Shown in pieces: positions 1,625 to 11,911 of a stretch of DNA of 12,108 nt. The stretch lies in the NCBI GenBank assembly GCA_963977445.1, contig CAXBPH010000212.1:1-12108 (forward strand). The letters run 5' to 3'. The translations under genes were made by a program, and so were the position numbers. Position 1 is the first letter of the stretch; the number at the start of each line of letters is the position of its first letter. The notes beneath the pieces are model-generated. The model saw only the letters and a list, made by a program, of their open reading frames with translations. It ran no database searches and had not been told where the DNA came from. This stretch comes from an uncultured bacterium (GTDB lineage: Bacteria > Hydrogenedentota > Hydrogenedentia > Hydrogenedentales > JAEUWI01).

Positions 1625-2125
1625 CTATTTTCTTGGCAGGGTGATGTGGAGCGTCTCATCGCCTTCTTCCCAGAAAAACGAAAATATGGCTTCTTCGCGG
1701 GTGAAGGATTCCAGCGTGCAGCCACCGATGTGTTCTCCCAACTGCAACCAGGTTCCCCGAGGCGAGTCGGGCGTTGTAATTTTTATTTTCGTCGTGCCGA
1801 TCTGTCCCCTGCCTACTTCGATGGCCGACAGCATTTCGGCCAGGTCAGGCGCCTGCGGTTTCGGCGGCGGCGGTGGTGGGGCAGGCGGTGGCGGTGGCAC
1901 CAGCTCCGTCCACAGGGCCGGGGCATCGCGAAGGTCTTTGACCATCAACTCGAAATCGGTGGCCTCGTCGTCTGCAAGGAGGGCATGAGAGGGTACTTCG
2001 GCCAGCGCGTCGGCAAGTTCCTGCCGCTTTACGTCCATAGGGCTGACGACCATATTAAGCAAGACTTTAGCAATCAGAAGGCCGGCAATACCGACGGCGA
2101 ATATCGATGCGTGGCGTTTGGTCAT
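1625..2125 (-). CDS. GspC/PilP-like inner-membrane connector protein (N-terminal TM, polyproline linker, HR-like beta domain, no PDZ)
   Basis: 166 aa with a hydrophobic N-terminal segment, PPPPPAPPPPPPKP linker and C-terminal GTWLQLGEHIGGCTLESFTREEAIF resembling the GspC HR/PilP pattern. It sits between gspM and gspD, with an ATGA overlap to the upstream gene at 2122-2125. Confidence 0.65.
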   Translation of the reverse strand: MTKRHASIFAVGIAGLLIAKVLLNMVVSPMDVKRQELADALAEVPSHALLADDEATDFELMVKDLRDAPALWTELVPPPPPAPPPPPPKPQAPDLAEMLSAIEVGRGQIGTTKIKITTPDSPRGTWLQLGEHIGGCTLESFTREEAIFSFFWEEGDETLHITLPRK

Positions 2126-3144
2126 GACGCAGCCACCGGGATTACGGCAATCCGCTCGATTTGAATCGTATCATTGGTATTTTCGAATACGATGAAGGGC
2201 CCATCGACGTGGGTGTCCTGTCCCGTTCCCGAGGGTGCGGTGAAGCGTAGTTGTATCAGTTGGTGTGGGTCGGTTCCATCGAGCACCAGGCCCTTGTCGC
2301 CCGTCATGGAAATCGCACCGGCGGCCACGGAAAGGCGAATGGGGTCGCGGGAATGAATCTGGATATCCATGTCGAAGGTCATCCCCGCCGGAAGGGTGAT
2401 GGGGAGCCACGCACGGGCTCCGGCCTCTTGTGCCTGAAGAACCAGGTGACCCTCCCCGTTTTTCTCTGCACTACAGCCCTCCATGGTCCAACTGGCGGGC
2501 TCTAGTGGTCGGAAATCAGGCAGGGTTGCCGTGTCGACGATGATTCGGGAGATGTCGACGTCTGCACGTACATGATTCTGTGCGGGGTCTCGCCGCATAT
2601 CGATGCGATCAAGGCGAAGGGATTGGGGGCTGCCCTGAAGTCGCTCCAGGAAGGCCAGCATGTCGGTAACGGGGGCCGGAGGAATCTGGACCGTAATCTG
2701 ATACTCCCGAAAACCTTCACCACCCGCGTTCAGGCGCCCCTGGCCCAGCTTGGGGATAGATACCAGCGTACCGCTATTGCTATTGGTGCTGAGGGGAATG
2801 CCGTCGGCGTCGAGTTCAGGCGGTACGCGATTGGCGAGACGGTAAATTTCCTGTCGTAAGCGGTCACGAATCTCCGATTCGCTCCAGGCGCTGGAGTGCT
2901 GATTGGCTACGGCCTTGAATCGGTCCTCCACGCTCTGTCGGCGCGCCACTTGATAGTTGAAATTCACGAGGTCCGAGGAAAGCCGATCAATCTCCCGATC
3001 AAGTCGGTCCAGGGTAGACCAGGCCCCTCGAATTCCCAAGAGCACGACCAATACAGCGACGAGGCTAGCTACGGCCAGTGCGAGCAATTGTTCCCGGGTG
3101 CTTCGCCCGGACCAGAAATCAGCGAATGCCTGAAGTGACGACAT
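2122..3144 (-). CDS. gspM: GspM/PilO-like assembly platform protein with C-terminal extra domain (340 aa)
   Basis: Start reassigned to ATG 3144, which has GAGGAGG just upstream. Begins with FWSGRSTREQLLALAVA (GspM-like W..S.RE motif), then a TM helix, a coiled coil and a ferredoxin-like segment (EYQITVQI...DMLAFLERLQGSPQSLRLDRIDM). About 120 extra C-terminal residues follow. Confidence 0.72.
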   Translation of the reverse strand: MSSLQAFADFWSGRSTREQLLALAVASLVAVLVVLLGIRGAWSTLDRLDREIDRLSSDLVNFNYQVARRQSVEDRFKAVANQHSSAWSESEIRDRLRQEIYRLANRVPPELDADGIPLSTNSNSGTLVSIPKLGQGRLNAGGEGFREYQITVQIPPAPVTDMLAFLERLQGSPQSLRLDRIDMRRDPAQNHVRADVDISRIIVDTATLPDFRPLEPASWTMEGCSAEKNGEGHLVLQAQEAGARAWLPITLPAGMTFDMDIQIHSRDPIRLSVAAGAISMTGDKGLVLDGTDPHQLIQLRFTAPSGTGQDTHVDGPFIVFENTNDTIQIERIAVIPVAAS

Positions 3145-4555
3145 GGGCGTCCTCCTCGGGCTGGGGAATTGCGATCTGGTAGTTAAAGATGGGCACGCCC
3201 CGCTCGGTGCCCTCTGTCTCATAGAGGCTGTGGGCATTTGAAAAATGGGAGAGACTACCCTCGGCACCCTGGCGCAACTGGCCCAGAAATTCCTTAAGAA
3301 TGAGATCCTTTGAAGCGGCACGTCCCCAGATATTCATCCCCGTTTCCCGGTCAAATTGCACGCGGGTAATATTGAAATCTGCGGGTGGTGCCGCGGCCGA
3401 GACGCCCGATAGTAATTCCAGGAAGGAACCTCCCCGGTCTACCTGACGTGAAATGATGTGGAGGCTTTGTTGTTTGGCGGCGATGCCCTGGGCATTGGGC
3501 GCGATGTGGTCTCGTTGCTCCTGGAGTTCGGCAATCAGATTGCTCCGCTGCCACAGGGCTTGCCCAAACCAGAGGAGGAGCGCACAGACTACGATCGCGC
3601 ACAGGCCGGCCCCGAAAAGGAGTTGGGATTGTAAGGCCCGTATTGCCCGTGATTTCGCCAATCCGGCCGGGGCCAGGTGGAGCTGTAACGGGCCATCTCC
3701 GTCTATCAGATGAAGTGCACCCGCAAGCGTGGCGGGGCAGGGTGTGTTCTCATCGCTTAACGTTGTTTCCGTTGGTGCGATGGAAATATCTTTTTGCGTC
3801 TCTGCGCGAAGGATGTCGCAGAGCGCTGGGGCAGGAACAGCCAGGGTACTCAGGTAGATCGTGTCGGCTCCGAGGCCGTCATCACTCTCCCGGCGGTAAG
3901 CCGCCAGCAGTTCCCGAACTTCATAGACCAGGGCCTCGCGACTGTGGGCATCCTCGAGGTTCCAGGGCGCGGCCTGGACGATGGCCCGACTGAAGCGGAG
4001 TATGCCCTCTCGAAACACCGCAAGTTCCAATGCGGCGGAGTCTACGTGAAGGAGAGCGACATCGCCAGGGGCATCGCAGCGCGTTGCGATGGCGGCAAGG
4101 CACGCGGTACTCAGAAATATCTGTACAGGTTCTCGGCCAGCATCGGCAAGTCGCTTCAGGTGGCCATTCAGCACGTCCTGCTGCACGAGCACGACCAATA
4201 CGTGGGATTCGCCGCCGGGTAGCTGAGCCAGCGATTGATGGGTGACCACCATCTCTTCAATGGGGTAGGGGACGAATTCTGCCGCACTCAGGCGGACCAT
4301 CGCTTCGATTTCGCGGGGATCCTGGGTGGGGAGGGTGATGATGCGAAGGGTGGCTTCGTGTCGCGGTAGCAGGAGGTAACAAGCCCCGTCTGCGGAGTGA
4401 TGCGCTGAGAACACGTCCCCAAGGCCATTTGGCATGGTGAAGTGCAACGTTGTCATCGCCGCAGCTTGGGCATCACCCGTCTGGTCGCTGATAAGACAGA
4501 CGGCTCCAGCTTCATTGAACTGGACAATGGATATGACCGCATTATGGGGAGCCAA
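3119..4555 (-). CDS. gspL: GspL-like protein (PilM-like actin-fold cytoplasmic domain, TM helix, PilN-like periplasmic domain)
   Basis: Likely TTG start at 4555 with GGAGGA 5 nt upstream, overlapping the gspK stop (the ORF track starts at 4612). PilM/GspL-like motifs LLLPRHEATLRIITLP...EIEAMVRLSAAEFVPYPIEE and ALLHVDSAALELAVFREGILRFSRAI. TM segment LLFGAGLCAIVVCALLLWF. PilN-like LELLSGVSAAAPP..FNITRVQF...MNIWGRA. Confidence 0.8.
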   Translation of the reverse strand: MAPHNAVISIVQFNEAGAVCLISDQTGDAQAAAMTTLHFTMPNGLGDVFSAHHSADGACYLLLPRHEATLRIITLPTQDPREIEAMVRLSAAEFVPYPIEEMVVTHQSLAQLPGGESHVLVVLVQQDVLNGHLKRLADAGREPVQIFLSTACLAAIATRCDAPGDVALLHVDSAALELAVFREGILRFSRAIVQAAPWNLEDAHSREALVYEVRELLAAYRRESDDGLGADTIYLSTLAVPAPALCDILRAETQKDISIAPTETTLSDENTPCPATLAGALHLIDGDGPLQLHLAPAGLAKSRAIRALQSQLLFGAGLCAIVVCALLLWFGQALWQRSNLIAELQEQRDHIAPNAQGIAAKQQSLHIISRQVDRGGSFLELLSGVSAAAPPADFNITRVQFDRETGMNIWGRAASKDLILKEFLGQLRQGAEGSLSHFSNAHSLYETEGTERGVPIFNYQIAIPQPEEDAHVVTSGIR

Positions 4556-5507
4556 GGGATTCCTCCGACCACGACAGGATACGGGCAACATCGGATCCGT
4601 CGGGAACTTCAACGATAGCGGAGCACTCCGAATGTATCATGCCGCCCCGACGCGTTGCCACAGCGGTTATCTTAAAGCAGCTCGAATTGAACTTGCAAAA
4701 TTGCTGGAGTGCGAGCAGCCCGTCCCCGGAGATCCCGGTTTGTTCCGAGAACGCCTGCCAATCAGAAAAGCCGATATCATCGCGCGTCCCCGTGATGCCG
4801 TCTGGGCCGCTTCGAATGTGGAGCAGGTCATCGACCACGCTTTCCTCAATCTCAGGCAGGCTGGCCAAGACTTCTCTTGGTGCCGTGTTAACATTGATGT
4901 GCCCATCACCATAGGTCGTCAGAATGTCCCGAAGTCCGGGTTCATCTCCATCGCCATACCAGGCGTTATCGTCCAGACCACGAATGCTGCGCAGTTCGGA
5001 GATATCCTGGAATCGTTGCCCATTTACTTGCGCGTCAGCGTCGCCGGTGACGCGATAATGGATGCGTCGTGCGACGGGCAATGAAATGCCGGGGAGCGCT
5101 GCCATCATTTCATCGGAAACATGGTTGATGTTGATGAGTCGTTCCATATCCTCAATGTGATATTGGGCAACGTCATTTACAAAGTCGTCACCCGGTGTCA
5201 GTAAGCCGCCGTCGCGATAGAGGTCACCGACCTGGGCCCACGATTGGCCAAGATGGGTGGAAGGGGCCCGTGGCGCTTCGGTGGGATCCTGCCGTAGCGC
5301 GTCGAAGACGGTTTTGTTGCGTAGCTCCAGTATGCCCCGTTCCAGCGCGGCCCGGGCGGTCATTCGGGCTTGTGCGCTGTCGAGACTGTATCGAGCCGCC
5401 CGGACCTCGAGGCGAGCGCGATAGTGGTAGGAAATAGTAATGACCGTGAGCAGGGCCACCACCCACAAGACACTCACCAGGACAAATCCGTTGGATGATC
5501 GGCTCAC
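4542..5507 (-). CDS. gspK: Minor pseudopilin GspK
   Basis: Class III signal peptide SSNG/FVLVSVLWVVALL lacking Glu5, as is typical of GspK. Motifs IEDMERLININ, FQDISELRSIRGL and GHINVNTAPREVLASLP. 321 aa, GTG start overlapping the gspJ stop. Confidence 0.92.
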   Translation of the reverse strand: MSRSSNGFVLVSVLWVVALLTVITISYHYRARLEVRAARYSLDSAQARMTARAALERGILELRNKTVFDALRQDPTEAPRAPSTHLGQSWAQVGDLYRDGGLLTPGDDFVNDVAQYHIEDMERLININHVSDEMMAALPGISLPVARRIHYRVTGDADAQVNGQRFQDISELRSIRGLDDNAWYGDGDEPGLRDILTTYGDGHINVNTAPREVLASLPEIEESVVDDLLHIRSGPDGITGTRDDIGFSDWQAFSEQTGISGDGLLALQQFCKFNSSCFKITAVATRRGGMIHSECSAIVEVPDGSDVARILSWSEESLGSP

Positions 5508-6232
5508 AAGGCATCCCCCAGCATATTGACCAGTTGGTAGGCCTCACGGCGCTGACTGGCGGTTCGGGTAGGAAAGCGTGCGTGGACCACGAAGGGGGTG
5601 GATTTCTCCTCATCGAGATAGGTGAGTTCTACGTCAAGGGCCTGGGGCAATCCCCATTCCATGGCATGGTAGCGGGCAATCATGGGTTCGACGAACACCG
5701 GTGCCGCGCGCCAGTACGGTCCATCGGGGTGGGGCATCCAGACATAGTGAAATGCTACGTCGGCGAGGCCCCGGGCGATAGTTTGTCGACTTGTATCCGA
5801 AAACTCTATCGCCCCATCCTGAAACCCGCCCGAGTCCGGTGCTGCGGGCGGAATGGGCGATTGGACCAGCGCTTCCTCGCGCGCGAGCGTGCCGTCTGAT
5901 GGATTAAATGTATAGCGAACGCGCATCAGACGGGGAGCACGGCTCTCTCCGGATTCCATGGGCGGCGCATTTACAAACAGCGTGACTTCGTCGTGTGTGC
6001 CTTCCATGAGGTGGGCCGCAGGGGCGAAGACATTGTCGTATTCCCGTTGAATCAGGGACAGCGTATTTCTCGCCTTGCGATGGGTCCCTTCATCGTTTTC
6101 TATGGAGCGCCACGACTGAATGACGGTGAAAAACAGGGTGTACACCGCGGTCATGACGATGGTGAGTAACATGGTCGCCACGAGGAGTTCCACCAAGGTA
6201 AAACCACGCTGGTTCCTTGGGGGGCGTCTCAT
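5504..6232 (-). CDS. gspJ: Minor pseudopilin GspJ-like
   Basis: Prepilin motif NQRG/FTLVELLVATMLL. GspJ-like RVRYTF....GTLARE and LPQALDVEL segments. 242 aa, located between gspI and gspK. Confidence 0.85.
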   Translation of the reverse strand: MRRPPRNQRGFTLVELLVATMLLTIVMTAVYTLFFTVIQSWRSIENDEGTHRKARNTLSLIQREYDNVFAPAAHLMEGTHDEVTLFVNAPPMESGESRAPRLMRVRYTFNPSDGTLAREEALVQSPIPPAAPDSGGFQDGAIEFSDTSRQTIARGLADVAFHYVWMPHPDGPYWRAAPVFVEPMIARYHAMEWGLPQALDVELTYLDEEKSTPFVVHARFPTRTASQRREAYQLVNMLGDAL

Positions 6233-6696
6233 GGTACGAACACCGACGAATCGCGCCAGGCCTGGTCGGGACTGAGGAGGGTTTCCCCCGCGATGTTGAG
6301 GGCTTGTCCACCCCGGCTCCAGGAAATTTCTACCTGGAGTTTGCCCATATAGTTGAGAAATCGCTGCTCCACCGTTTCGTCACGGGCCACGCTCATCTGG
6401 ACGTCGAGGGCGGGCAGAGGGACGGCTACTTCGTCGAGACTCCAGGCGTACTGAAACCGTTCGTTGGGCGGTGGGAAAGTGCCCGAGTCGACGGTGCCGA
6501 TTGCGATGCGGGGCTGAAGTGTCTGGTCGGCCACAAGGTTCTCCAAGAGAAACTGGGCGGTGGTGTAATCCTGGGCCAAGCCGCGGGCCTGGATGGCGAC
6601 CTGTATGGCCCGCTGCACCGTCAACGCCGTAATACTCAGGATGGCCATGGCGGTCAGGGTCTCGATGAGAATGTAGCCCCGATGGCGGTGTTTCAT
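6229..6696 (-). CDS. gspI: Minor pseudopilin GspI-like
   Basis: Prepilin motif HRG/YILIETLTAMAILSITAL with Glu5. GspI-like SGTF....RFQYAW and LQVEISW segments. ATGA overlaps with both neighbours. Confidence 0.82.
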   Translation of the reverse strand: MKHRHRGYILIETLTAMAILSITALTVQRAIQVAIQARGLAQDYTTAQFLLENLVADQTLQPRIAIGTVDSGTFPPPNERFQYAWSLDEVAVPLPALDVQMSVARDETVEQRFLNYMGKLQVEISWSRGGQALNIAGETLLSPDQAWRDSSVFVP

Positions 6697-7202
6697 GGCG
6701 TCACCAGAATTTCACCGAGGGCACCGGTAATCTCGATCTCAATGTCTTTCTCATCTCCCTTTCGCCCATTCAGTTGAATACGAGCGGCATCGGACGCGCC
6801 ATTGGGATAGAAGGTAATGTAGTAAGAGCCACCCCGATCTCGGCGTGCCGTGACCCGCCCAAACTGAAGTGAATCAGGAAGTTGGCGCGTTTCGCCCAGA
6901 GCAGTATCTGCCAGGGGCATATAGGTCGCATCTTCGTCGATGCCAGCCACCCAGCCGGTCGCCCAGTAGTTCCCCGTGTCTTTATCCAAGTGGAGGCGGA
7001 GCTCTCGAGACTGGCGTATGGAGAGTTCCTGGAGATATTGGATGGTTGCGACCAGATCACCTCGGGCAGCGCGACGTTTCATGGCCCCCATGGACGCCCC
7101 ATAGAGGGGCACTATCGCGGCGGTGATTATGGTGAGGAGAGCGACGACTACCACGAGTTCCAGGAAGGTGAAGCCTCCGGCCCGCCGCGCGTGCGCCAAC
7201 AT
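6693..7202 (-). CDS. gspH: Minor pseudopilin GspH/FimT-like
   Basis: Prepilin motif RAGG/FTFLELVVVVALLTIITAAIVP with Glu5 and Pro22. C-terminal ITFYPNGAS...IEITGALG is typical of GspH/FimT. Directly follows gspG. Confidence 0.87.
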   Translation of the reverse strand: MLAHARRAGGFTFLELVVVVALLTIITAAIVPLYGASMGAMKRRAARGDLVATIQYLQELSIRQSRELRLHLDKDTGNYWATGWVAGIDEDATYMPLADTALGETRQLPDSLQFGRVTARRDRGGSYYITFYPNGASDAARIQLNGRKGDEKDIEIEITGALGEILVTP

Positions 7203-7206
7203 GCCC

Positions 7207-7602
7207 CTATTCCTTAGAAGACGTGCTCGTCACATCGTCTTCATTACCGGGCACGCCGTCGGGCCCGGAGGACCAGACCACGTAGTCCGCTTTTATGGCA
7301 TCGGTGGCCGGCGTGTAGTTGTAGGGATTGCCCCAGGGGTCGTCTCGGAGTTCTTTGAGGTAATTGCGCTTCCCATTTACCGCTTCGGTGAGGGCATCGA
7401 GCGCCGGGGGATAGGTATCGTTATTGTCCAGAGCGTACAGGTCGATAGCGGTCGAAAAACTCGCAATATCGCCCTTTGCTGCCCGTATTTGCGTCTCCTG
7501 GACCCGTCCACCAAAGGTGACGACGACCATGCCCGCGAGAATACCGATGATCACGGTTACCAGAATCAATTCGATGAGCGTGAAACCGCTATTGCTCTTC
7601 AT
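7207..7602 (-). CDS. gspG: Major pseudopilin GspG
   Basis: NSG/FTLIELILVTVIIGILAG N-methylation motif; AIDLYALDN..YP; DPWGNPYNY; C-terminal SSGPDGVPGNEDD calcium-loop motif of GspG. AGGAAG lies upstream of the ATG. Confidence 0.95.
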   Translation of the reverse strand: MKSNSGFTLIELILVTVIIGILAGMVVVTFGGRVQETQIRAAKGDIASFSTAIDLYALDNNDTYPPALDALTEAVNGKRNYLKELRDDPWGNPYNYTPATDAIKADYVVWSSGPDGVPGNEDDVTSTSSKE

Positions 7603-7663
7603 GAGATGCTCTTCCTACAGGTATTACCTACAACCCACTACCGGGGAATATTGCTCACGGAAC

Positions 7664-7699
7664 AGTATAGTACAGAACGGGCTCCCGCCCCAATGGCAA
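7664..7699 (-). promoter_or_regulatory. Possible promoter of the gsp operon
   Basis: Good -10-like TATACT at 7669-7664, overlapping TACTAT. The -35 is ambiguous: TTGGGG at 18 nt spacing, or TTGCCA (7699-7694) at non-canonical spacing. Confidence 0.35.
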
Positions 7700-7727
7700 T
7701 CCGGGTTCTATCGGGCTGCTCCGCAAC

Positions 7728-8141
7728 TCACTCGCTCTTGGCATCTTCCTGGGCTTCAAGGCGCAAGGAGGCCGAGTTGATGCAGTAGCGGTGTCCGGTG
7801 GGGGCCGGGCCATCGGGAAAGACATGGCCCAAGTGGGAATCACAGCGGCTGCAGTGCACTTCAGAGCGCCGCATCCCGAAACTTACATCCTCTTCGGTCT
7901 CCACATTATCGGGGCCGATAGGCTGGAAATAGCTGGGCCATCCCGTGCCGGAATCAAATTTATGCGCCGCATCGAAGAGAGGTTGTCCACAGCCCACGCA
8001 ATGATAGACCCCCGGACGCTTCTCGTCATTGTATGCCCCGGTGAAGGCCGGTTCCGTCCCTTTTTGTCGCGCGACACGATATTGCTCCGGCGTCAGGAGT
8101 TCTTGCCACTCGTCATCGGATTTTGAAATCTTATCGACCAT
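7728..8141 (-). CDS. msrB: Peptide-methionine (R)-S-oxide reductase MsrB
   Basis: LTPEQYRVARQKGTEPAFTG, two Zn-binding CxxC motifs (CVGC, CSRC), KFDSGTGWPSY, HLGHVFPDGP and catalytic RYCINS. Start reassigned to ATG 8141, which has GAGGT upstream; 137 aa. Confidence 0.98.
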   Translation of the reverse strand: MVDKISKSDDEWQELLTPEQYRVARQKGTEPAFTGAYNDEKRPGVYHCVGCGQPLFDAAHKFDSGTGWPSYFQPIGPDNVETEEDVSFGMRRSEVHCSRCDSHLGHVFPDGPAPTGHRYCINSASLRLEAQEDAKSE

Positions 8142-8295
8142 AACGCTACCTCGTTTCTTTTCGCTCACTGGAAACCGTATGTTTCTTCAGTCTAACACGG
8201 AAGTGTACTCTTTTTGCGACCTGTCTCCGAAATAAATTTCGGTAATAAAGGCCAGAATTCAGCGGGGGGTTACGACGCAAAGCGACACGTACTGC

Positions 8296-9250: not shown

Positions 9251-10771
9251 ATGGCCTTTTGGAAATCAGGAATACTCATTTGCCTGGTGACGCTTCTTGC
9301 GGTACCAGTTTTTGGCCAGAGCACGCCAACCCTACGCGCTGGTGCCGCTAAAAGTGACCTGTCCCGCGTGGAGGAAGGCCTGCGTATTAATGACCCGGTC
9401 TATGCCAAGGCTTTGGTCTTGGATGACGGTGTGACCAAGGCCGCTATTATTGGCATGGATGTAACAGCGATTGGGGGAATTGGAGAAGTTTCCGATGCGT
9501 TTCTGCCCGAACTACGTGCCCGAATCGAAAATGAGTTGGGCATCCCGGGGCTGAATGTGCTGGTAAATGCTTCCCACAACCACCCACCACTGAATTTCCT
9601 GTGTTCCCACGAAGAGCAGGTGGCGAAAACCTTCGATGCCGTGAAACGGGCTGCAGCGCAGTTGGAGCCTGTGACGGCCGGGGCGGGAGAGGGGCTCGAA
9701 AAACGTATTTCCATGAACCGCACCTTACGTCTCAGTGATGGCACGGGTTGGACCATTCGTCACAGTAACCCCTCGCCGCCCGATGACGTGGTGGAGAGTG
9801 TGGGGCCGGTCGACCCAGAGATCGGCATCCTCCGACTCGACAGGGCCGATGGAACACCGCTGGCCGTGGTTTACAATTTTGCCTGCCATCCCTATGTCAC
9901 CGTGCCTGAGGGCGGCGTCACGGCGGATTTCCCTGGTTTTGCTTCGAAGGCTATCGAGGAAAATCTTCCTGGTGCCCTCGCGATTTTCCTGCAGGGCGCG
10001 GGCGGTGACATTACGCCCATACTCTATAAAGATGTGAATCGTGCGCGGGATTCCGCACCCGAGGGACGTATCCTCGGGTTGACCACCCTAAAGGCGGTGC
10101 GGGCCATCGAAACCAAACCCGCCACACTGCGGGTGGTAAACGAGGCCCTACGGCTGCCCCGAAAGGCAGACTTTGACGAACGGGTTGCCGAATTGGAGGT
10201 TGAGCAGGACCAACTGCTTCGTTCACTCCGTGGGACCAGTCTGAACTTCAAGACCTTCGTGCCCCTTTATGTCAAGCACCTGATGGACCCAGAACATCCA
10301 CTGGATTACAAATATCGCTATCTTCAGTCAGCATCCATTGGCGAAGATGAATTCGGCGATATCGATGAGCAGAACCGCTCCCATCTGGATAAATACATCC
10401 GGAATATTCGTGCTATGGAACAAATGGCCCGAAATCAGGATAAGATAGCCACGCTACGCCGTCACCAGAAGATTAATGATGACTCCGGAGAAGATACGAT
10501 AGCCACCGAAGTTCAGGGTATTCGCATTGGCGACTTTGTTTTGGTCTCTTCACCGACCGAAATGCTCTCCACCGTCGGGATGAATGTGAAGAACGCATCG
10601 CCCTTCGAACACACCTTCGTTGCGGCCTATTCAAATGGCTATATCCACTATGGCCCGCCCGCCTCTGAGTATGCCATGGGCGGGTATGAAGCCACCGAAT
10701 GCTTGCTGGATCCCGCCTGGCAGTCCCTGTATGAAACGAAAGCGGCGGCAGTGCTGAAGGCCCTGGAGTAA
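9251..10771 (+). CDS. Exported neutral/alkaline ceramidase-like metallo-amidohydrolase (substrate unknown)
   Basis: Sec signal peptide (MAFWKSGILICLVTLLAVPVFG-Q). Motifs LRAGAAKSD, DPVYAKALVLDDG, NASHNH (family ATHTH), NFACHP, ADFPG, FLQGAGGD and GYEAT match the neutral ceramidase N-terminal-domain family. Confidence 0.8.
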   Translation: MAFWKSGILICLVTLLAVPVFGQSTPTLRAGAAKSDLSRVEEGLRINDPVYAKALVLDDGVTKAAIIGMDVTAIGGIGEVSDAFLPELRARIENELGIPGLNVLVNASHNHPPLNFLCSHEEQVAKTFDAVKRAAAQLEPVTAGAGEGLEKRISMNRTLRLSDGTGWTIRHSNPSPPDDVVESVGPVDPEIGILRLDRADGTPLAVVYNFACHPYVTVPEGGVTADFPGFASKAIEENLPGALAIFLQGAGGDITPILYKDVNRARDSAPEGRILGLTTLKAVRAIETKPATLRVVNEALRLPRKADFDERVAELEVEQDQLLRSLRGTSLNFKTFVPLYVKHLMDPEHPLDYKYRYLQSASIGEDEFGDIDEQNRSHLDKYIRNIRAMEQMARNQDKIATLRRHQKINDDSGEDTIATEVQGIRIGDFVLVSSPTEMLSTVGMNVKNASPFEHTFVAAYSNGYIHYGPPASEYAMGGYEATECLLDPAWQSLYETKAAAVLKALE

Positions 10772-10825: not shown

Positions 10826-11911
10826 ATGAGACGCAGAAAACGAAAAAAGGGATCGAAGGGCCAAAAGTTCAGTGATAAGGCCGGTCTGTCGCCGGGCACG
10901 CCGGTATTTATTGGTCGTCGTAAACAAAAGACCACCGAATTGGACGTGTTGAGTTATGGCCTCGATACGATTCGGGAAATTATGCCGGCAAGCCTGGAAG
11001 ACTGTGTTCTTTCTGACCAGAGCGGTGAAGTAACGTGGATAAACGTATTCGGTATCCACGACGTGGATCTCATCAGCGCATTGGGGGAGCGTTTTAATAT
11101 TCACCCCCTGACCCTGGAAGACATCGTAAATACGGCGCAGCGACCAAAAGCAGAGGAATTCGACAACTACTTCTTTGTGGTGCTGAAGATGATGACCTAT
11201 AGCGAGAAGACCCATGAGATCGACATTGAAACGGTCAGCATGGTCTTTGGTGAAGGCTTCGTCATCTCCTTTCAAGAACGGGACGGCGATGCCTTTGATT
11301 CTGTCAGAGAGCGGATCCGGGCCAACAAGGGGCGCATTCGAAAAATGGCGGCCGACTACCTCGCCTATGCGCTGATGGATGCGGTGGTCGATGCCTACTT
11401 TGTTGCGTTGGAGCAAATCGGCGAGCATATCGAAATGGTGGAGGACGAGATAGTCGCGAATCCTGTGTCGGCCCAAATGCAGGAAATCCACCGCCTGAAG
11501 CGGGAGATCCTCTATCTTAGAAAATCCGTCTGGCCCCTGCGAGAAGAGATTGCCGCTATCCTGAAGACCGAATCCACCTTGGTTAAAGAGGAAACCCGGG
11601 TCTACTTACGCGACGTCTATGACCACACCATCCGGGTTATCGACATGGTGGAGACGAGTCGCGATATATTGAGCAGCATGCACGATATCTATCTGTCGAG
11701 CGTGAGTAATCGCATGAACGAAGTCATGAAGGTGCTCACTATTATTGCCACCATCTTCATCCCCCTGACCTTTATCGTAGGTGTCTACGGGATGAATTTT
11801 GACCACATGCCGGAATTGCGCTGGCGGTGGGGCTACCTCTATGTTTGGGGAATTATGTTTACCATGACCCTTGCCATGGTGGGCTATTTTCGAAAGAAGC
11901 GCTGGCTTTAA
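10826..11911 (+). CDS. corA: Magnesium/cobalt transporter CorA
   Basis: KAGLSPGT N-terminus, WINVFG, IHPLTLEDI...QRPK, NRMNEVMKVLT, YGMNF signature, MPEL loop and two C-terminal TM helices; 361 aa. Confidence 0.98.
   Translation: MRRRKRKKGSKGQKFSDKAGLSPGTPVFIGRRKQKTTELDVLSYGLDTIREIMPASLEDCVLSDQSGEVTWINVFGIHDVDLISALGERFNIHPLTLEDIVNTAQRPKAEEFDNYFFVVLKMMTYSEKTHEIDIETVSMVFGEGFVISFQERDGDAFDSVRERIRANKGRIRKMAADYLAYALMDAVVDAYFVALEQIGEHIEMVEDEIVANPVSAQMQEIHRLKREILYLRKSVWPLREEIAAILKTESTLVKEETRVYLRDVYDHTIRVIDMVETSRDILSSMHDIYLSSVSNRMNEVMKVLTIIATIFIPLTFIVGVYGMNFDHMPELRWRWGYLYVWGIMFTMTLAMVGYFRKKRWL

Follow-up and report, generated by a model that had tools for sequence, protein, structure and literature searches.

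A type II secretion GspM homologue fused to a C-terminal CBM-type beta-jelly-roll in Hydrogenedentota

Results

The gspM gene encodes a GspM homologue with an additional C-terminal domain

The stretch analysed here, referred to as the window, is the DNA of 12,108 nt from contig CAXBPH010000212.1 (assembly GCA_963977445.1) of an uncultured Hydrogenedentota bacterium, which carries a type II secretion system (T2SS) operon on its minus strand. GspM is usually viewed as a partner of GspL that is small and does not vary. We found that the gspM gene of this operon encodes, in one uninterrupted reading frame, a GspM homologue that is almost certainly fused to a beta-jelly-roll of the carbohydrate-binding module (CBM) type. 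This GspM-CBM fusion is real and phylum-wide, and no new kind of system is involved. The original prediction, made from the letters of the window, had seen in it a candidate for a new T2SS subtype, which is too strong: a single subunit carries an accessory domain specific to the phylum. The features of the gene, all on the minus strand, are the following.

2125-3144, minus strand: gspM-CBM coding sequence, 340 aa, with its stop codon at 2122-2124 (open reading frame (ORF) list and translation)
3151-3157, minus strand: Shine-Dalgarno-like GAGGAGG, read from the sequence
2926-3129, minus strand: Pfam T2SSM match, residues 6-73, profile positions 3-71 of 160
3031-3087, minus strand: transmembrane segment LLALAVASLVAVLVVLLGI, residues 20-38, the only hydrophobic stretch, inside the AlphaFold2 helix 16-80
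2533-2880, minus strand: periplasmic alpha-beta-beta-alpha-beta-beta region, residues 89-204 (AlphaFold2 secondary structure)
2512-2532, minus strand: flexible linker, residues 205-211, the sole segment with a predicted local distance difference test (pLDDT) value below 50
2125-2511, minus strand: C-terminal CBM_4_9-superfamily beta-jelly-roll, residues 212-340 (129 residues)

The open frame extends over 2122-3321 on the minus strand (399 codons) and the protein ends in ...IERIAVIPVAAS. The ATG at 3144 is the likely start because GAGGAGG sits 6 nt upstream of it; this codon gives exactly the 340 residues first predicted, about twice the length of a typical GspM if the 160-position T2SSM profile is taken as the measure, and it lies inside gspL, whose end (3119) is overlapped by 26 nt. 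The strings that the original prediction had quoted, VRADVDISRIIVD, WTMEGC, HQLIQLRFTAPS and IQIERIAVIP, are indeed found at residues 192-204, 219-224, 294-305 and 327-336. The span that it had given to the additional region, 2122-2490, corresponds to residues 219-340 plus the stop codon and needs extending, the domain starting earlier, at about residue 212 (window position 2511).

The gene product is a bitopic inner-membrane GspM homologue in a type II secretion operon. The window protein matches the Pfam family T2SSM (PF04612) with 39.5 bits against a gathering cut-off of 27.8, and is the sole T2SSM match in its genome; the operon context agrees with the identity as a T2SS platform subunit that had been proposed. 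T2SSM was also matched by 39 of 41 homologues at E<=1 and by 67 of 140 members at E<=1.4e-5, and the precomputed Pfam annotation of 46 homologues is T2SSM or none. The score against the NCBIfam GspM equivalog NF040576, 18.3 bits, is far under the cut-off of 60, and the protein is therefore a distant GspM homologue and no equivalog. GspN, named earlier as an alternative identity, is ruled out, since Pfam T2SSN gave no match at E<=1 with the full-length protein, nor at E<=10 with the C-terminal domains. The N-terminus would be cytoplasmic, because R14 and R17 stand before the transmembrane segment, and the remainder would be periplasmic, with the known GspM topology as the basis.

The full-length AlphaFold2 model, computed from an alignment of 41 sequences, has a mean pLDDT of 83.6 and a predicted template modelling score (pTM) of 0.45. 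In its GspM part a helix at residues 16-80 and a helix at 89-103 are followed by a beta-beta-alpha-beta-beta arrangement up to residue 203, a predicted order of secondary structures that fits the known GspM plan and would suit a ferredoxin-like (alpha-beta-beta)x2 domain such as that of EpsM and PilO. This part is strongly conserved in the alignments, H83, S84, W87, R185 and R200 being invariant or almost so. The Foldseek list of the full-length model was taken up by CBM matches and not by GspM-fold ones, and a profile search of PDB sequences with the full-length protein gave nothing significant and, at E<=10, no chain of GspM, EpsM or PilO.

Residues 212-340 are predicted to form strands only, with block pLDDT values of 81-95 in the full-length model. 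When the C-terminal domain was folded alone, using 28 homologous domains from the genome loci, the pLDDT rose to 91.8 with a pTM of 0.85 and ten strands were predicted, which agrees with the all-beta region read earlier from the letters. Against the PDB, Foldseek matched this domain 271 times at E<=0.001, and TMq is 0.60-0.68 for the leading matches. The top match is the CBM4 1gui (E 1.5e-6, TMq 0.64), followed by the hyaluronan-binding module of the Streptococcus pneumoniae hyaluronate lyase, CBM4-2, a porphyran-binding CBM, CBM35, CBM6 and CBM16. Among the structural neighbours of the full-length model, the Campylobacter O-acetylesterase Ape1 (8gkd, E 3.3e-5) stands at rank 49. The linker that carries the domain differs in length and composition among the relatives: from the last GspM strand to the conserved tryptophan of the domain we counted 11-54 residues (median 26, 153 proteins), the window protein having the shortest distance.

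The C-terminal domain is related to CBM_4_9 through intermediate sequences

The jelly-roll of CBM4/9 type that had been suspected from the sequence was recovered in the Foldseek matches and, in relatives of the window protein, by Pfam CBM_4_9 (PF02018). The window domain itself does not reach the cut-off of this family, 25.9 bits. CBM_4_9 was matched by seven of the 28 homologous C-terminal domains at E<=10, the best of them at E 2.6e-5 with 25.0 bits, over profile positions 6-120 of 136, and another one extending to position 127. Three of 140 full-length members matched at E<=1.4e-5 (best 5.9e-8). The cut-off was exceeded by two N-terminally truncated members, P0070 (31.7 bits) and P0123 (29.5 bits), which match the profile of our C-terminal domain at E 3.6e-29 and 8.9e-24, respectively. 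With ESM Atlas features, 17 of 30 matches fell in clusters bearing CBM_4_9 (score 0.94). Homology of the domain to CBM_4_9 by way of such intermediates is well supported.

The profile of the C-terminal domain also reached GH16/SLH/CBM_4_9 proteins at E 1e-13 to 1e-17. We rejected these values as evidence of homology because they are sums of 4-8 weak repeats, each of at most 22 bits, and because unrelated fn3- and Calx-beta-repeat proteins score alike. A search of PDB sequences with the same profile gave nothing significant (best E 0.94).

The fusion is found throughout Hydrogenedentota

A word-indexed search gave 45 other homologues, 40 of which are 334-366 aa long with 78-100% query coverage; one is labelled Candidatus Hydrogenedentes in its source. 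We then have, from a search of 1.84 billion representative proteins with the C-terminal domain profile, 299 matches at E<=0.001. The GspM N-terminal domain is present as well in 133 of the best 150 of these 299 matches (length 134-378 aa, median 356), and this places the fusion architecture far beyond chance. The rest of the best 150 are ten short proteins (96-232 aa) and seven large repeat proteins. The short proteins were considered as possible stand-alone copies of the domain, and six of eight examined look like truncated gene calls: P0062, P0063, P0068 and P0069 are so judged because they begin partway through the linker or the final GspM strand, and P0085 and P0164 start within the C-terminal domain itself. 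The other two, P0139 (190 aa, with a Pro/Ala-rich N-terminus) and P0170 (an apparent chimera), were not classed as truncated calls.

Among genomes, the gene is present in 41 of 41 related ones and in 120 of 135 of the phylum (80 of 86 of high quality), and in 74 loci no ORF carries the C-terminal domain apart from a GspM part, so the assembly artefact or split gene that the original prediction had named as its own possible undoing does not apply. The 34 named loci belong to Hydrogenedentota, bar seven Nitrospirales/Nitrospiraceae records, one Bathyarchaeia record and one untitled metagenome chromosome. Loci L044, L048, L050, L058, L059 and L061 are records with such off-phylum titles. The four off-phylum records that entered the tree described below (three Nitrospirales/Nitrospiraceae and one Bathyarchaeia) nest among Hydrogenedentota, and the eight off-phylum records are likely mislabelled or mis-binned. 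As far as the databases show, the fusion is confined to Hydrogenedentota, and the search for its phyletic spread that had been suggested at the outset finds it throughout this phylum. It looks ancestral there, because another order of the phylum, represented by a single genome, also carries it, as a 387-aa protein whose C-terminal domain matches at E 3.8e-10. None of the eight genomes of one genus (G126-G133, 87-96% complete) matches the GspM-CBM profile, and this genus may lack the operon altogether. In the literature, at the level of titles and the starts of abstracts, we found no description of a GspM-CBM fusion or of a Hydrogenedentota T2SS, which is consistent with the earlier remark that no described GspM of this architecture was known.

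The domain has been lost in several lineages

Ten loci were found with a complete short gspM, ending 4-40 residues past the last GspM strand. In nine of them the gene order is unchanged, gspL lying upstream and the secretin downstream, and the GspC-like gene is detectable in eight of these nine; the upstream pseudopilin genes are covered by the retrieved stretch in only five of the nine. No stand-alone copy of the C-terminal domain was found in the short-form genomes. The tenth locus (L063, G004:C11:80528-89160) comes from a genome of the window's own genus and comprises gspH-I-J-K-L, a short gspM lacking the jelly-roll and the GspC-like gene, with no secretin downstream; the genes that come after, judged by eye, are oxidoreductase-, TIM-barrel- and kinase-like (sugar-metabolism) genes. 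This arrangement may reflect a rearrangement, decay or misassembly.

A tree was built from 58 distinct GspM parts (48 fused, 10 short) and rooted on the sequence of the other order, leaving out identical rows, rows with fewer than 170 profile positions and rows cut by contig ends that lack the C-terminal domain. Four state changes are needed on this tree, of which well-supported branches force at least two. The simplest reading would be one old gain followed by several losses, at least two and most parsimoniously four. Taken with the GspM topology, these results describe a C-terminal domain that faces the periplasm, is flexibly tethered, has a binding-module fold and is accessory, not core.

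The S/T-rich stretch of the secretin ahead of N0 was considered as a possible glycosylated partner that might co-vary with the jelly-roll. The median pre-N0 length is 180 in loci with the domain versus 112 in loci without it. We rejected the candidate as confounded by phylogeny: the length follows phylogeny and not the domain, because the nearest relatives that have the domain are equally short. Separately from this comparison, all secretins of this operon type carry, between the signal sequence and N0, a stretch of 94-226 aa rich in S/T/N/P/G/Q (42-65% such residues), which may be glycosylated or serve as a spacer.

Conservation and selection acting on the C-terminal domain

In the alignment of 158 members, the most conserved positions of the C-terminal domain are W219 and P316 (99%), P304 (87%), Y297 (85%), F301 (83%) and R296 (73%), with L251, Y/F257, R/H at 298 and R/Q at 300 conserved in addition; the window protein has L296, I297, Q298 and R300. 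The alternation of residues suggests that positions 295, 297, 299 and 301 face the core and 296, 298 and 300 the solvent. The surface conservation of the domain is low. Modules of the CBM4/9 type typically begin with N-x-[GSA]-F-E and carry D-[ND] in the last strand. Distant members of our family begin with N-[GPA]-[GS]-F-E...W and end with [YFL]-[ILV]-D-N-[VL], the start motif being present in 52 and the last-strand motif in 61 of the 158 members. The window copy has drifted from the superfamily motifs and from the family consensus, and it is therefore not the best copy in which to seek the ancestral ligand. A C-x-x-C motif just after the conserved tryptophan (for example W-x-C-E-G-C) was picked up by a rough regular expression in 21 of 158 members; the window protein has a single cysteine there, C224. 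In the members with the motif, the two cysteines might form a disulfide.

Averaged over the 820 pairs of 41 sequences, identity is 0.585 in the GspM part but just 0.308 in the C-terminal domain. The ratio of nonsynonymous to synonymous substitution (dN/dS) was estimated by the Nei-Gojobori method on 13 non-independent pairs at 70-97% identity, 12 of which gave a value for the C-terminal domain. It ranged over 0.058-0.221 in the GspM part and 0.070-0.502 in the C-terminal domain, which was higher in 11 of the 12 pairs. In the three closest pairs, the only ones with unsaturated dS, the values were 0.32-0.34 for the C-terminal domain versus 0.06-0.08 for the GspM part. Since the dN/dS of the domain is well below 1 yet above that of the GspM part, the domain is kept by purifying selection, but loosely.

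The operon and its neighbouring genes

The ORF list and the Pfam/NCBIfam family matches of the window delimit a T2SS operon with the gene order gspG-H-I-J-K-L-M-C-D, whose members other than gspM are listed below.

7207-7602, minus strand: gspG, Pfam T2SSG E 6.7e-16
6693-7202, minus strand: gspH, Pfam GspH E 2.5e-7
6229-6696, minus strand: gspI, pseudopilin, Pfam/NCBIfam matches
5504-6232, minus strand: gspJ, pseudopilin, Pfam/NCBIfam matches
4542-5507, minus strand: gspK, pseudopilin, NCBIfam GspK E 9.4e-24
3119-4612, minus strand: gspL (PilM-like and GspL-like), a frame of 497 aa
1625-2125, minus strand: GspC-like small gene, 166 aa, with a transmembrane helix, a poly-proline linker PPPPPAPPPPPPKP and a C-terminal domain of ~75 aa
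3-1541, minus strand: secretin gspD, the N-terminal 513 aa of a frame that leaves the window, Pfam Secretin_N in 4 stretches, E 1.7e-35

For the gspL frame, the NCBIfam matches to GspL (E 6.3e-10) and to PilM (E 1.3e-8) stay under the respective cut-offs. The ATG of the GspC-like gene overlaps the gspM stop codon as ATGA. Neither Pfam nor NCBIfam gave a family for the 166-aa protein, which lacks a PDZ domain and is GspC/PilP-like by position only; its ~75-aa C-terminal domain is conserved and the gene adjoins gspM in the relatives too. In profile searches of PDB sequences, the best results for its HR domain (a GspB chain, E 0.84) and for the secretin N0 (PilQ, E 0.27) were non-significant. The window secretin has an S/T/N/P/G-rich stretch of ~148 aa before N0 (about residues 40-148 of the frame).

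No gspE or gspF lies beside the operon in the window, where gspG is followed by msrB (7603-8168, SelR E 1.8e-52). The window genome contains 19 T2SSE matches, and on a complete chromosome of the same genus the closest T2SSE match is ~42 kb away from gspM. Further along the window, on the plus strand, are a CorA Mg2+ transporter (10826-11911, E 2e-75) and a signal-peptide protein (9251-10771), whose match to the neutral/alkaline ceramidase family PF04734 (E 4.9e-11) is confined to its C-terminal part.

Discussion

A putative periplasmic binding module on the assembly platform

The C-terminal domain is probably a binding module rather than an inert appendage. We propose that the jelly-roll would be an accessory binding module that the machine can do without, moving about on its tether in the periplasmic space over the platform formed by GspL and GspM. 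Its ligand would most likely be a glycan or glycoconjugate, whether sugar-decorated cargo, the strands of peptidoglycan or some other polysaccharide of the envelope, and binding would keep the assembly platform aligned with the cell wall or the secretin, or would concentrate cargo there. As a whole, this mechanism is tentative, and we hold it at somewhat less than an even chance.

Sugar binding is the known job of the CBM_4_9-type superfamily, and T2SS and type IV pilus machines use cell-wall anchors. We favour a glycan among the possible ligands for both of these reasons, and because a related jelly-roll is found on a periplasmic peptidoglycan enzyme; by analogy, then, a glycan may be what the domain binds, a point on which our confidence is distinctly short of even. 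The GspC-like neighbour is without a PDZ domain, which would therefore leave room for another subunit with an accessory binding domain.

Several observations weigh against a glycan-binding module. The window domain has no match to any Pfam CBM family at E<=10 (the whole protein none at E<=1), and the apparently strong matches of the C-terminal domain profile to true CBM_4_9 proteins carry no evidential weight. The window copy lacks both the start and the last-strand motif, having ...DFRPLEPASW... and ...IQIERIAV... in their places, and departs from the consensus at position 296 (L, R in 73% of members), at position 297 (I, Y in 85%) and at 330/331 (E/R, D/N in the consensus). Besides W219 and P316, conservation falls on residues of apparently structural role (Gly, Pro and alternate hydrophobics), and no conserved exposed aromatic platform was identified in the 158-member alignment. 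The domain is acidic, with a net charge of -9 in the window and a family median of -6. Lastly, there are ten complete short gspM genes, nine of them in same-order operons, and the domain is therefore not needed for type II secretion as such.

Alternative explanations

The jelly-roll might instead dock cargo, binding folded secreted proteins directly or via their sugars and passing them to the pseudopilus. The PDZ domain of GspC has a cargo-related role in classical T2SS, and the jelly-roll would stand in that role. The small size of the GspC-like neighbour (just 166 aa, without PDZ) and the flexible tether of 11-54 residues speak for this, and the C-terminal domain evolves 2-5 times faster than the GspM part, which would fit the tracking of lineage-specific cargo. 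Fast evolution fits relaxed constraint equally, however, and in the lineages with the short form the GspC-like gene is of similar length, with no compensating change. We consider cargo docking rather unlikely. That the jelly-roll is a cargo-selecting T2SS receptor, recognising sugar or protein and having taken over the role of the GspC PDZ domain, we regard as quite improbable; if it were true, secretion in Hydrogenedentota would be gated by a glycan mark or by a cognate cargo surface, and the lineages that lost the domain would have altered secretomes.

A structural bridge is also unlikely. In that case the domain would contact the secretin N-domains, the HR domain of the GspC-like protein or GspL, and would stabilise the link between platform and channel. 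Its location at the periplasmic tip of GspM, past a helix of ~65 residues, is in line with such a contact, as are the translational coupling with the GspC-like gene through ATGA and the same-genus genome in which the domain and the secretin of the locus are both missing. Against it, the nine other short-form loci retain the secretin, eight of them together with the GspC-like gene, the surface of the domain is poorly conserved, and the difference in pre-N0 length (180 vs 112) tracks phylogeny.

The weakest alternative, a decaying passenger that descends from an old fusion, has no specific ligand and is kept since its truncation mildly harms GspM folding or stability, would account for the repeated losses (at least two, most parsimoniously four), for a window clade without the family-consensus residues and the CBM4/9 motifs, and for the domain being the least conserved part of the protein, but it is very improbable given a dN/dS well below 1 in all 12 valued pairs, including 0.32-0.34 in the three least saturated, the persistence of the domain in 48 of the 58 distinct loci, which span two orders, and a fold predicted with very high confidence.

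Comparison with known proteins

Like canonical GspM (EpsM/PulM/XcpZ; PF04612), the protein described here has a short cytoplasmic N-terminus, one transmembrane helix, a predicted periplasmic alpha-beta-beta-alpha-beta-beta region, and a gene placed between gspL and gspC/D. It differs in being twice as long, with a 129-residue jelly-roll past a flexible linker, and in its family scores, the Pfam match being limited to residues 6-73 and the NCBIfam score being 18.3 bits against 60. Known CBM4, CBM22, CBM6 and CBM35 modules occur in glycoside hydrolases, lyases or toxins that are secreted or sit on the cell surface, whereas this jelly-roll is joined to an inner-membrane secretion subunit and faces the periplasm; its sugar binding is putative, and the window copy is without the Pfam match and the usual end motifs of those modules.

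Within the T2SS, GspC has a C-terminal PDZ or coiled-coil domain that is accessory, periplasmic and variable between lineages. The jelly-roll resembles it in being accessory, C-terminal and periplasmic and in being borne by an inner-membrane platform protein, and differs in subunit (GspM, not GspC) and in fold; the GspC-like protein of this operon has no such domain. The Ape1 CBM35-like domain is a jelly-roll of the same superfamily on a periplasmic peptidoglycan O-acetylesterase. Unlike ours, it belongs to an enzyme and not to a secretion machine, and its match is no stronger than those of many other CBMs. Among T2SS accessories, the GspA/GspB (OutB) scaffold for peptidoglycan and secretin anchoring ties the machine to the cell wall, according to an excerpt of PMC9239104. 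GspA and GspB are separate proteins with other domains, and general Pfam scans of the GspM described here gave no peptidoglycan-binding family (LysM, OmpA-like, PG_binding, AMIN, SPOR).

Significance

Three things limit what can be drawn from the fusion at present: its hosts are uncultured, some lineages do without the domain, and the function of the domain is putative. How a T2SS chooses its folded cargo, and what keeps its inner-membrane platform aligned with the cell wall and the secretin, are open questions in the field, and a phylum-wide GspM with a tethered domain of binding type offers a handle on both. The lineages that lost the domain while keeping an otherwise unchanged operon are natural deletion variants. 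CBM-type folds usually belong to secreted enzymes; in Hydrogenedentota, one has become a piece of the secretion machine itself, on its periplasmic side.

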